A stretch of DNA of 63,405 nucleotides, filler included, from Reclinomonas americana ATCC 50394 (Eukaryota), in assembly GCA_048213135.1 (NCBI GenBank). It is 12 parts of 12 records of this genome, joined end to end, with 100 filler letters (N's around TTAATTAATTAA, not from the genome) between each part and the next. Parts side by side here need not be neighbours in the genome. Positions count along the whole stretch, not along the records: positions 2,408 to 9,892 come from AFZH01019076.1; positions 9,993 to 18,239 come from AFZH01019078.1; positions 18,340 to 21,082 come from AFZH01019079.1; positions 21,183 to 30,136 come from AFZH01019080.1; positions 30,237 to 32,748 come from AFZH01019081.1; positions 32,849 to 39,598 come from AFZH01019082.1; positions 39,699 to 49,025 come from AFZH01019083.1; positions 49,126 to 53,786 come from AFZH01019084.1; 4 more parts are not named here. One strand, given 5' to 3'. The notes beneath the pieces were generated by a model, which saw only the letters and a program-made list of their open reading frames with translations, made no database searches and was not told where the DNA came from. Of this stretch, positions 2,424 to 62,634 are shown one piece after another; position 1 is the first letter of the stretch, and each line of letters opens with the position of its first letter. Made by a program: the position numbers and the translations under genes.

Positions 2424-5400
2424 ATGCAAATGAACTGGAAAGGAGGCGTGGGCGGTTTTGCGCCGACCCACAGCTCGGTGCGCCCCTCACTGATTGCTCT
2501 GCTCTCTCTCCTCCCTTTCGTCTCCTCATCAACGAGCAGCCGCAGTCGCAGGGTTTGCCACTTGCCGTTCTCCCCACGAGTACGGCTGATCGATCATCTG
2601 TGCGAACCACGGAACCTGCTGCGAACGGTGGACCAGGCTCGACAGAGTCGCTCACGCACGCGCCGACTGCGCCGGCGGACAAGACTTCACTCGCGAACAT
2701 CCCTACTGCCATTTTCTTGTCGCGCCCTTCTCTGACGCAGTCTGCCGACTTTGCCACGCTGGTTCTGAGTCCGCCACCAGTTGCCGCCGCTGCTGCTGAC
2801 TTGGCCGCCGCCAATGCCCGGACGGATCAGTTGAGTTTTCTGTGTGCGGCTGTTTGTGCGTGTTTTTTGATTTGAAATCCCCCGCCTGACGATTGATGCA
2901 GAGTGATTTCGACACGCATGGCTTCGCTCCCGCAGGCGCGACCTCGCGGACCCTCTCTTCTTCAGTCTCGCGCCACGTCGTCGGCATTCGGCGCGCCTAT
3001 GCCGCGTGCACACGGTGCAAGTGGCAGTGACAGCACTCTGGTGTACAGCATCTTCGGTCCGCCAATGGCGCTCACCACACACGACCCCGTGTCACACAAG
3101 GGCGGCCGGGGACGTACCGCAGCGGGCGCGCATCACGACTCACCGTGCCCATTCGAACCGCCACAACGCGACTCGTCCCTCCTGCTCCGATTCCCTCCCA
3201 GCACCGCTCGCGCCGCTGCCATTGCCGCTGCCGCCTCTGCTTCCGCGGCAACAACAACTACGACGACGACGACAACAGCAACAACTGGGGCGCCGAATGC
3301 AAACGGTTTGCAGGAACACACTGCATCCATCTTGCAATACGTCAATCCCGGAGGTCAGTTGCCAATCGTCCGCTCGATGGGCGAAGCGGAGAAAGTAGTA
3401 GGTGCCGGTGCCAGCGGCACATCAGCTTCACTGCCGTCACCGTTGCCTGCAGGGACAGGGCCCTCGCACACACCCGGTGAACGTGTTCGTGTGTCGGGTT
3501 TCGATTGTGAGCCGCAGCCGCAGCGCTGGATAACTGGTCATCTGGAGGCTCGTGTTGGTGGATCGCAGTCGCTGCTCGTCTCCGCCTCCGTCGCACCAGT
3601 GTACTACTCGGCGCCGCTGGACATTGGTGTGCTGCGACCGATCACTCCGGGCCGGGCCTTGCCCTCCAACTCGCATCATCATCATCATCATCACCACCAC
3701 CACCAACATCAACAACAACATCAGTTACACGAACAACAAATGTTGCGGGGCAGCAGTGCCTTCCGTACCGCCGTTCCGCGACGCAAGCCAGCAGGTACAT
3801 TCGCAAGCTACCGTCCTTTCTTGTTGTGGATGATGATACTGAATGACGATGTACGTGCAGAGCCAATGGATCAAGACGAAGATGAGTGGGAGAAGCGCAA
3901 GGCCGAGGACATTCTCTCGTTCAAGCAGTTTTCGCGAACTCTGGGCCTTCACGGTCGCATGTCGGGCGAAACTGGTACGTCACACAAAAGTCGTTCTCGA
4001 GTATTTCCTCCCGTCGAGTTATCTGACATTGGTGATTGCCGCTGCCAGAATTGTCGGAGCTGATTGTGTCCATGGTCGACAAGGCGCAGTCGCTGGGTGT
4101 TGAGATTTTCAGTGGCGAGGAACTTCAGTCGCTTCCAGAGGAGAGCGTTCTCGGTCGGGGAACGTATGGCGAAGGTGTGTGATGCTCCCGGCTCTCCGCG
4201 TCATGTTTGTCTGCGCAAATGCCAACCCGAGGTGCTGCTCCCGACGCGCAGTGTTCTATTTGCAACGATTCGGTCGCGAGTTGGCGTGGAAGCACTTTTT
4301 CGAACCGAAGAAGGAACAATTGCGCGTTGCCAAAGAATTGTGGTGCTACTTGTTGCGTAGTGCGCGTACATGATGCTTCTGTGACGTTGTATGTGTGTGT
4401 CACACGTGTGACTAAATGACAATTGGTGAACAGGAAACTGCGCGGGTCGCGTTACGTTCCAGAACTGATCGGCATTCACGTCGGCAACAAGTTCAGCGAA
4501 GTCCGAGGTACTGTCTGCGTGTGTGTGTGTGTGATGTGTGTTACTGCTCTTGACGCCCATTTCGTGCTCAGGTCTCATTATGGCCAAGGAGGCTCCGTCG
4601 CTGGAACACTACTCGCGTAGCACTACGCGACGGAGTGGCCGTCCACTTCCTTTCCAGGACATCTACCCGATTGCGGTGCAGCTGGTGGCCGCGTTGCAAG
4701 AGGCTCACCAACATGGCATCTATCACCGCGACTTGTGTCCACACAACGTACTGGTTTGTGTCGAGTGGTGGTCGATGTTTTCTTCTTCTTTGTCAATGAC
4801 TGCAGGTTGCTGACAATGTCGTTGTGTGCGCAGTACTCGAAGCGGACCAGTGACGGATACGGTGGTGTGCTGCACCTGGTGGACTTTGGCGAGTGTCGCA
4901 TTGCGGATCCAGCCGTGTGCCACATTCTCAACGAACCATCGGAGTCCGACCTGCCGGTGATACGCGATTGCATTGTGCACGGCAGAAGTAAGCGAATCCG
5001 CGGCCATGAAATCTACACGTTGCGTGTTGGCGTGTGCACCTGAATCCCCGACATTACTGCTTACGTTGTGTGCGTGTGGACAGACCACCCGAGGTGCTGG
5101 CCAACCGCGGTGCCATCTCGGTTGTCGATTGTGAGCTCGAGAAGATTGACGTGTACGGTGTGGCTGTGGTACTATACGAGTGCATTGTCGGCACCAAGCC
5201 TGCCTTCTACAACCATGCGGATCTGCGCCTCGGCACGCCACAGCGGGAGACAATCATGAGCACGGTACTGGGTGAGGCGTGGGAGTGCTTCCTGTTGATG
5301 GGCCTAGCGCAGGAGGAGGAGAGGTTTGTCATGCTGTATTATTCCCTGTTGAGTCGCGAGCAAGTAAGCCTTACGCTGTTGTGCTTAACAGAATTGGACT

Positions 5401-5848
5401 GCATACCATGGCCGGCTTCCTGCAACGATTCCGCACGGAGTTGCAGCGCGAGCTGCGCTTCTTGGAGACCGGTGAACAACTGTACCGCAATCCACGAAAG
5501 AAGCAGCCGAAAGCATCCACTGCTGCTGCTGTGCCCGGCAGATGATGCAGTTGTAATGAGGCAGATAGGTGTTTGTGACTTTTTTATAATTGTTGCTGAT
5601 TTGCATGTGAGCCAGACGTGTCGCGTCTTTCAGTGGCAGATTGAGGGCGATTGGGAGGAATGCTGAGATTGGGCACTGCGCGTGGGTGTTGCGAGGCCGC
5701 AGCCGACCGTGGTCTGATGCGACCCGGTGCCATTTGCAAGAATGACGACGGAAGTCCCGTGTGCAGCATGGGTGCACGCCTGTTCGAGAAGCCTGCACAC
5801 ACAGCCCACCCCGCACCGCACGTCAGTCAGTACGTGATGGATGGATGA
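2424..5848 (+). CDS. Ser/Thr protein kinase with long low-complexity N-terminus (poly-T, poly-H/Q); multi-exon, 3' end approximate
   Basis: Spliced motifs LGRGTYGEVF, ELAWKH, KELWCYL, IYHRDLCPHNVL, LVDFGE, YTPPE, KIDVYGVAVVLYE. Confidence 0.85.
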
Positions 5849-61128: not shown

Positions 61129-61184
61129 ATGAAATTGCACTTGTTTACGGCTGAAAACGAAGGAACAAAAGAAAGAGAAGAGAG

Positions 61185-62634
61185 ATGGGCAACACCAAGT
61201 CCAAGCCGCGGCCGACGTTTTCGCTGCACGCGGTGGTCGAGAAGATCGGGCAGGCCAACAGCTTCTCCAGCAAGTACCACGGTTGGTGCATGCACGCGCA
61301 CATTCCTAGCTCCACTCCTGTCCACTCATTCTCGCACACTCTCACACAGTGGATGCGGTGGTGAGCGAGTACTGGACGTTTGACCTGTGGTGGCGGGAGC
61401 AGCCGAGTTGCGCACGCGCGTCTGTTTGCGCATCACGGCGCATGTGTTTGATTCTGACATCAAGAACGCTTGTGTAACACAGTGGGTCTCTTCCCGGTGG
61501 AGCGTGCCGCCGTGTCGGCAGACGACGATCCCGCTGTTCCGTTTGACCCAGCACCCGAGAACCTGGTTCTGTTGCGTGTGCATCATCATCATCGTGTCAC
61601 CTAATCATGACTGCCACTGACCTGGTGACGCGGACAGGCCGACAATGGACGGCGCGCAGCTGGCCTCGTCCACGGTGCCTCGCAGTCGGTTACCTCCGTC
61701 TCCATCGCGCTCCGCTGCTGGCTCCTCGTCGACGACGGTGAGTGCGTCGGCGGCTGGCGGCAGTTCGTCGGCTCCGTCGTCGGCCACCTCGTCGCCCGCC
61801 AAGTCGGTGGTGTCGCTGGAGGTGGACGAGAGCAGCGAGTACCTGCGACGTGCGCACCGCGCGGAGCACTATGCGCAGCGGGCGTCGACGGTGATGTACA
61901 GCGGCGATGCGTCGTCGCTTCCGTCCTCGGCGGCACCGACTGCAGCAGCTGGTGGTGGTGGAGGACCTTCTGCCGCAGCGGCGGGAACAACAACAGGAGG
62001 AGCATCGGCGACGGCGACGGCTTCGGCAGCGGCACCGTCGGCATCGCCGTTCGCGGCCATTGCCTCACGAGTGACGATGACTGGTGGTGCGGCGGCGACG
62101 GCAGCACCGACGACGATACGACCGGAGCTGGAGGCGTGGCTGTTGCGACCAATTCTCGACGAGTGGCGACTGGAGTCGACGCACGAGGCACTGTCGCCGA
62201 GTCAGATGGAGCGATTGCGCATCTCGGCACGCTTGGTGCACTCGAGCGGCGCGGAGCGCGAGCGTCGTGTGCTCACCTGGAGCGCGTTTTATCGCGTGTT
62301 GGAGATGCTGCAGGCGTCGCTGTGCATGCTCAACCCGTCGGCTCCCGAGATTCAGGTCGCCGAGGCTGAGGAGTGTTGCATCTGCATGGAGCGCCGCTGC
62401 GACGTGGTGTTGGGTCCGTGCCGGCACGCTTTTTGTTACCAGTGTGCCAAGGCGTGGAGCCAGAAGCACTTTAGCACGTGTCCGCTGTGCCGCCGACGAA
62501 TGCAGGTGGACTCGCCGGATACGTGGGAAATGCCGGCGCCGCCCACCGTGGCCGAGTCATTGGTGATTGTTGCCGAGCTCATTCGCACGGGCGGTAATGC
62601 AGGAGGTGGAGGTGGTGGGGGGACGCGAAGATAA
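61185..62634 (+). CDS. RNF141: RING-HC E3 ligase, RNF141-like, with N-myristoylation motif
   Basis: MGNTKS start; EECCICMERRCDVVLGPCRHAFCYQCAKAWSQKHFSTCPLCR...DTWEMPAPP. Confidence 0.75.

Follow-up and report, generated by a model that had tools for sequence, protein, structure and literature searches.

In the window analysed here, a stretch of 63,405 nucleotides (nt) from the Reclinomonas americana ATCC 50394 assembly GCA_048213135.1, and in a wider sample of the same genome, GTTGCG(T) appears to form a second common class of intron donor (5' splice site). Based on gene models and predicted base pairing, these donors are likely read by a dedicated paralogue of the U1 small nuclear RNA (snRNA) that would pair with intron positions +1 to +7. 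A sequence-only reading of the window had listed eleven such introns and one further candidate, and had taken GTTGCG to be a routine donor class, a one-base-shifted copy of the main GTGCG donor, read either by U1 in a shifted or bulged register or by a dedicated snRNA variant. Our models favour the dedicated variant: a genome search for a U1 complementary to GUUGCG found a paralogue matching GUU(A/G)CGU, and the binding predicted for the canonical U1 is very weak.

A second common donor class

Donor use was surveyed in 120 stretches of the genome together with the window, in total 1,049,774 called bases or about 1% of the 108 Mb assembly. Three of the contigs were included for the U1 genes on them, and haplotype pairs account for a few of the stretches. 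Introns were predicted with a self-trained, two-strand gene model, either in a flat version that scores every GT equally as a donor or in a trained version to which donor training was added. GTTGCG is the commonest donor hexamer in the flat model, with 283 of 2,352 introns (12%), and accounts for 429 of 2,480 introns (17%) in the trained one. The flat model uses 283 of 1,204 GTTGCG sites as donors, against 1.7% for all GT hexamers. GTTGCGT is used at 229 of 548 sites, GTAGCGT at 0/31, GTCGCGT at 0/199 and GTGGCGT at 1/262. Donor use is thus far above the hexamer background though the excess of the raw motif is modest: counts in 0.53 Mb are 1.14 times the order-3 Markov expectation for the hexamer and 2.2 times for the heptamer. 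GTTGCG occurs at 57 sites on the two strands of the window, so the motif alone is not rare there; GTTGCGT occurs 27 times, compared with 15.6±4.3 after shuffling, a count reached in 0 of 100 shuffles.

The hexamer heads a broader group of GTT donors that have G at +6 but not at +5 (412/2,352 flat; 556/2,491 trained), in which GTTGAG and GTTTCG come next in frequency. At 12–17% of modelled introns, or 17–22% with one-letter variants included, the description as a routine class is borne out. The description as a one-base-shifted copy of the main donor fits in part. The usual +5 G is indeed displaced to +6, leaving C at +5, but the class is not a plain copy and is far stricter, with GC at +4/+5 in 283 of 412 shifted-type donors versus GC at +3/+4 in 244 of 1,150 ordinary ones, among which GTGCG and GTGAG share first rank. 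The preceding exon differs as well. In the flat model, G is the last exonic base before 34 of 412 shifted-type donors versus 788 of 1,150 ordinary donors with a +5 G; before GTTGCG itself the share is 7%, versus 72% for ordinary donors. Among the 1,257 donors that follow a non-G exonic base, 532 begin with GTT.

The class is present in 92 of 104 intron-rich pieces, and both donor classes are mixed in 187 of the 275 gene models with at least three introns, none of which uses GTTGCG alone. Two organisms in one assembly, with one U1 each, were considered as a source of the two classes and ruled out, as the classes share genes and the contig with the canonical U1 itself has GTTGCG introns.

Beyond the donor, GTTGCG introns look ordinary. 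The branch-point motif YTVAY is found in 236/281 of them versus 449/568 ordinary introns, at a median distance of 18.5 versus 19, the acceptor is CAG in 260/281 and resembles that of ordinary introns, and lengths are the same. These introns therefore have U2-type GT-AG ends with a major-type branch point and acceptor but lack the +5 G of the canonical register, and the U12-type signals (an RTATCCTT donor and a CCTTRAC branch point) are absent from the class.

A divergent U1 and its predicted pairing

The 5' arm of U1 is among the most conserved RNA sequences of eukaryotes. Rfam searches of this genome found two very different U1 types. The canonical type, on contig G000:C343, has the arm AUACUUACCUG, while the variant, on contigs G000:C429 and C479, has the arm AUACGUAACUU (A1–U11), with ACGUAAC and not the canonical ACUUAC. 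Both arm types are 11 nt long ahead of the closing helix. The two variant copies, with flanks about 96% alike, are likely two haplotypes; they are identical at 154/154 positions, and the 300 nt ahead of them show 8 substitutions and 14 gap positions. Both match RF00003 over model positions 1–166 (64.0 bits, E 4e-14). An Sm site is visible, as are two loops that we take to be of the U1-70K and U1A types, and comparison with the canonical U1 reveals stems compensated by two-sided changes in 3/5 pairs of upper stem-loop 1 and 2/4 pairs of the closing helix. The snRNA promoter element CCCAYAA (background 0.0014 per 25 nt) stands at -66 of the variant gene and at -62 to -72 of U2, U4, U6, U11 and U6atac; the region upstream of the canonical U1 falls in a gap, and one U2 type is without the exact word. 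A third U1 type was not found by genome search; as the assembly is gapped and family searches ran exon by exon, this negative and the later ones for snRNAs and proteins do not imply absence. A metagenome scan for a similar U1 gave 8 matches, none of them U1 by Rfam.

The predicted mean duplex energy over 429 GTTGCG donors is -9.3 kcal/mol with the variant versus -1.1 with the canonical U1, and over 349 GTGAG donors it is -2.5 with the variant versus -9.4 kcal/mol with the canonical U1. With the variant, GTTGCG donors are predicted to pair better one base into the intron, in a shifted register of the human type. The seven pairs would be C9–G+1, A8–U+2, A7–U+3, U6·G+4, G5–C+5, C4–G+6 and A3–U+7, using the same U1 bases that the canonical U1 puts on -1 to +6 and placing the helix one base deeper in the intron. 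Since this helix would lie wholly within the intron, no exon contribution would be needed, and by binding GUUGCGU there the variant could provide a strong donor where the exon cannot end in G. The work may accordingly be divided: G|GT donors would fall to the canonical U1, and many of the introns that no exonic G can precede would fall to the variant. Less firmly, the ordinary U2/U5/U6 machinery would then take the intron, with the cut set at GU. With one U at +2/+3 looped out, the canonical ACAGAGA box may extend to G+6/U+7; otherwise it may pair weakly. Some further factor would have to favour G over A at +4. A change of U1 register does not oblige the U6 helix to vary in step (the available part of PMC4856993).

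Several observations weigh against this interpretation. All introns are gene-model predictions, some with misplaced junctions, and both U1 types score below the Rfam cut-off (64.0 and 63.7 vs 69.5 bits). The donor with a perfect Watson-Crick match to the variant arm, GTTACGT, is used at just 2/34 sites, and +4 A occurs in 10 shifted-class donors versus 283 with G, compared with 63 versus 244 for +3 A in ordinary donors; arm pairing alone does not predict these two features, and over-stable pairing or a second reader could lie behind the non-use of GTTACGT. GTTGAGT, used at 27/151 sites, suits the canonical U1, bound in the shifted register known from human, at least as well as it suits the variant. 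For the catalytic step, the suggested genome search for a U6 variant matching GUUGCG found none, and the three U6 copies found are all canonical. The junction of a JMJD7-like gene in the window is neutral in homologue scoring (52.3 for GT vs 52.8–53.3 for three alternatives), and two of the paralogue comparisons given below prefer a cut three bases on. Conservation between haplotypes lends weak support: where the second haplotype (contigs G000:C1683–C1699) covers the window, over 52,388 bases, positions -3 to +9 differ in 0/20 GTTGCG donors versus 39/119 other modelled donors (p=0.001), but GTTGCG sites that are not donors are also unchanged in 27/29 cases, which weakens the argument.

It is unlikely that the canonical U1 reads GTTGCG in the human-type shifted register, with the variant a bystander or engaged in another job. 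Human U1 is known to bind in shifted and bulged registers (PMC4856993, available part), and the canonical U1 does fit the GTTGAGT donors present here. However, its predicted binding to GTTGCG donors is far weaker than to GTGAG, the dominant +5 C mismatches the canonical arm base U5 and pairs with the variant's G5, and the variant gene looks conserved and has a promoter element.

Upstream of the variant gene on G000:C429 (L001:270-1020; the same in L002), about 750 non-coding bases contain nine GTTRCG words on the U1 strand, five of them GTTACG, which is rare elsewhere. The two copies share all nine words, some of which resemble competing donors of short introns. The GTTACG cluster (at least three per 800 nt) is unique in 1.05 Mb (Poisson p ~1e-9, post hoc) and is possibly a feedback element. 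The gene that precedes the variant U1 matches no Pfam family, and its only lead, to a lipid-transfer protein, is weak. For U1-70K there are two matches only (L167, L168), probably alleles, both with a modelled GTTGCG intron.

Alternative readers, cut position and known systems

The other snRNAs found offer one further route after U1 binding. The U5 loop is canonical, and two divergent U2 types (L145:1501-1699; L146 and L147:1501-1717) both have the canonical branch-site arm. The sole U6atac found (L143:1501-1632, L144:1501-1630) is of the CC type, ACCGA, and reads ACCGAGAGA, with a box complementary to +5C/+6G. The 5' end of this RNA is a perfect complement of its central region, pairing of ACCG with CGGU could enclose AGAGA in a hairpin, and the helix-I arm of the RNA can pair with the U2 genes found. 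The variant U1 might therefore pass GUUGCG to this U6atac, with G15/C14 opposite +5C/+6G, in a hybrid core with U2, while the GUUACG cluster acts as a feedback sensor. In human suppressor tests, U6atac positions 14/15 pair with intron +6/+5 (PMC4980772), and hybrid spliceosomes have been proposed (PMC11347168; available parts of both). If true, the CC variant would gain a substrate, the route would serve a sixth of introns and the cluster would set the level of the variant U1. We regard this as quite improbable. The box equals a published CC variant, so a relation to GTTGCG is not required (PMC2396436), C13 of U6atac mismatches the +7 U, and GTTGCG introns have major-type branch points.

The presence of this U6atac can be otherwise explained. 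With a U11 gene (L152:1501-1625), two AT-AC introns with CCTTGAC branch points (L063, minus strand; L129, plus strand) and a CENATAC-like gene with a GTATCCTT site (L150, minus strand), a minor spliceosome is, judging from these genes, present, and together they account for the retention of U6atac. Genome searches found no U12, no U4atac and no U6atac with a canonical box. A genome-specific adaptation of U6atac to GTTGCG was considered and is less likely because the CC variant, [GU]CCGA, occurs in Acanthamoeba, Physarum, oomycetes, cnidarians and moss, where it was called hard to explain (PMC2396436). CCGA for the usual AGGA is common to those species and to this one, the preceding base being A here and G or U elsewhere, and the variant has no evident tie to GTTGCG donors. 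Given the published CC variant and the minor spliceosome, ordinary U6 is favoured for GTTGCG introns.

A reader other than RNA is very doubtful. A sequence-specific protein that chiefly reads GUUGCGU, with the variant U1 mostly binding GUUACG-type sites for regulation, would fit the strict +4 G, the near non-use of the perfect match GTTACGT and the clustering of GTTACG only beside the variant gene in the 1.05 Mb sample. However, seven contiguous predicted pairs between arm and donor are unlikely by chance, no candidate protein was found, and a genome search for U1-C was empty. Over-stable U1 pairing can itself impede splicing, as reported from work on yeast Prp28, and may do so at GTTACGT.

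On modelled evidence, we favour GTTGCG introns being cut at the GT. When five offsets were compared with non-GT donors allowed, 183/314 introns stayed at the G, 91 moved to the in-frame +3 and 40 to frame-shifting positions; frame class 0 thus holds for 274/314, control motifs shifted to +3 more often, and the flat model cannot tell in-frame offsets apart. Paralogue comparisons of GT at +1 versus GC at +4 favour GT in 14/17 cases, with 1 tie and 2 for +4, after 6/23 rows were dropped as self-matches before counting and with several rows from one gene family. In a shuffle test on the split codons of 66 phase-1 introns, GT-AG gave p=0.002 versus p=0.085 when the cut is moved past the G and the 3' end shifted to match; the same test is weak at phase 2 (p=0.32 flat, 0.025 trained). 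Raw codon likelihoods are uninformative because so many codons end in G, and at phase 2 they leaned towards the shifted cut. A cut after the G creates a stop codon in 5/426 trained-model introns and the GT cut in 0, the phase-0 cases being circular. At the window intron beginning at 17650, a cut after the G would put R in place of L before WFEN. In the eIF4A-like gene, the GT junction scores 144.8 bits versus 114–139 for five alternatives against a profile of 105 homologues. It is therefore hardly plausible that the motif is real and the cut elsewhere, either three bases further in at the GC or just past the first G with the 3' end shifted to match, even with the 91 in-frame shifts and the neutral JMJD7 homologues.

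A shifted U1 register at atypical human 5' splice sites was reportedly described by Roca and Krainer in 2009. Shifted (+1) and bulged registers are now documented at such sites (PMC4856993 and PMC9311317, available parts). The human shifted register and the class described here have in common GU-AG introns, a conserved G at +6 and a U1 helix one base off the cut site. In human the sites are rare and read by the ordinary U1, whereas here they make up 12–17% of modelled introns with a near-fixed word and a separate matching U1 gene, and binding by the canonical U1 is predicted at only -1.1 kcal/mol.

Altered U1 arms are found in Entamoeba (ACAAAC) and Mastigamoeba balamuthi (ACGUAC), and Physarum has a standard and a modified U1 (bioRxiv 10.1101/2022.06.08.495308, available part). 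By analogy, these offer a precedent for arms that co-evolve with donors. As in Entamoeba and Mastigamoeba, the 5' arm here seems changed to fit an atypical donor; the change of U5 to G, pairing with C, is common to Mastigamoeba and the variant U1, and Physarum, like R. americana, has two U1 types reported. However, all three keep the normal register, whereas here the register would move and the invariant C8 is replaced, and the two archamoebae have one U1 candidate per genome, whereas here the canonical U1 is kept alongside the variant. Like the minor (U12-type) spliceosome, the system would use a second snRNA to define a second donor class, its signal strict and confined to the intron, without a G closing the exon; unlike it, the RNA is U1-like and not U11, for which a separate gene exists, the branch points are major-type and the class is abundant. 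Fritillaria borealis likewise has a large class of atypical splice sites and a modified major spliceosome. Its U1 exists in two versions that share the same 5' end, and the available part of the report notes that the solution there was not a dedicated divergent U1 (PMC13326754), whereas here such a U1 appears to be the solution.

No published description of a GTTGCG donor class was found in a literature search, with most subscription journals outside its reach. The few reported changes of the U1 arm keep the register, whereas here one U1 would be displaced one base from the cut site in thousands of introns, by extrapolation from the sample, and two U1 genes appear to share out the introns of ordinary genes. 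This would offer a natural experiment, across a whole genome, on how U1 binding becomes separated from the choice of cut site by U6, U5 and Prp8, a question addressed so far at a few human sites. It would also show a parallel recognition system arising by duplication of an snRNA, the route often assumed for the origin of the minor spliceosome. In practice, a gene predictor that has learned from ordinary donors would annotate many R. americana ATCC 50394 genes wrongly.

GTTGCG introns of the window and neighbouring observations

A direct check of the sequence found GTTGCG at all 12 positions listed earlier, on the strands given. The eleven main sites are preceded by T, C, T, A, C, C, A, A, C, A and T, none of them G, and the candidate at 25764 by G. 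The introns follow with coordinates, strand and supporting evidence; "extra" marks those added by the gene model.

4352..4433, plus strand: GTTGCG intron, phase 2, kinase gene; frame and gene model; in-frame GT alternatives nearby, no homology pin
5019..5083, plus strand: GTTGCG intron, phase 2, kinase gene (YT|PPE); open frame; identical in second haplotype; model chose 5034
6682..6740, minus strand: extra GTTGCG intron, phase 0; gene model; identical in second haplotype
7632..7695, minus strand: extra GTTGCG intron, phase 0; gene model
8341..8417, minus strand: extra GTTGCG intron, phase 2; gene model
11431..11495, plus strand: GTTGCG intron, phase 1; frame; trained model only; in-frame GT alternatives
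12898..12961, plus strand: GTTGCG intron, phase 2; frame and gene model
15172..15365, plus strand: extra GTTGCG intron, acceptor uncertain; gene model
17650..17776, plus strand: GTTGCG intron, phase 1, homeodomain-like gene (label of the sequence-only reading, motif presumed); frame and gene model
25678..25764, minus strand: candidate G|GTTGCG intron, unconfirmed; open frame possible; in neither model; outside second-haplotype cover
28848..28922, minus strand: GTTGCG intron, phase 2, eIF4A-like DEAD-box gene, motif I; GT junction scores highest of six; DEAD family match
29161..29245, minus strand: extra GTTGCG intron near the 5' end of the eIF4A-like gene; gene model
38752..38809, minus strand: GTTGCG intron, phase 1, SCYL1-like gene (label of the sequence-only reading); frame and gene model
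39430..39489, minus strand: extra GTTGCG intron, phase 0, SCYL1-like gene; gene model
39560..39724, minus strand: extra GTTGCG intron, phase 2, SCYL1-like gene, crossing an assembly gap; frame and gene model
40868..40945, minus strand: extra GTTGCG intron, phase 0, SCYL1-like gene; frame and gene model
41366..42066, minus strand: GTTGCG intron, phase 2, 701 nt, SCYL1-like gene (YID|G); frame and gene model
53533..53608, plus strand: GTTGCG intron, phase 0, JMJD7-like gene; frame and gene model; exact junction not fixed by homologues
59255..59323, minus strand: extra GTTGCG intron, phase 1, RecQ-like gene (presumed from motifs); gene model
61407..61482, plus strand: GTTGCG intron, phase 1; frame and gene model
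61571..61637, plus strand: GTTGCG intron, phase 2; frame and gene model

At each of the eleven main sites, a GT-AG intron of 58–701 nt restores an open frame, although the earlier claim that the introns need this donor to stay in frame was too strong for some sites. The gene model recovers 9/11 of the donors in its flat version and 10/11 after training. It misses 5019, taking an in-frame GT at +15 (5034) instead; the kinase motif Y-x-P-E, as we presume it to read, favours 5019. The candidate at 25764 is called by neither version. Nine extra donors are modelled (6740, 7695, 8417, 15172, 29245, 39489, 39724, 40945 and 59323), and GTTGCG accounts for 19/157 modelled introns of the window. Several junctions had been held to be pinned by conserved protein motifs; homologues bear this out for eIF4A and do not fix the junction for JMJD7, and searches for SCYL1 and homeodomain homologues were empty. 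One-letter variants of the class (GTTGAG, GTTTCG, GTTCCG, GTTACG) are modelled as donors at 2830 (+), 7574 (-), 13889 (+), 25937 (-), 50195 (-) and 58446 (-).

Two segments of the window, about 21650-26377 and 42650-46970, have no match in the second-haplotype contigs and are possibly hemizygous insertions; the first contains 25764. Elsewhere in the assembly, G000:C1 (L007) is a 2.3 Mb bacterial contig with rRNA genes, and an rRNA search of the assembly returned bacterial 16S only. Protein searches with eIF4A and Hsp70 had best matches of 62% and 82% and yielded no named organism as a near relation. At 36000-37020 on the minus strand, the window also contains an intron-containing gene whose exons presumably resemble copper nitrite reductase.

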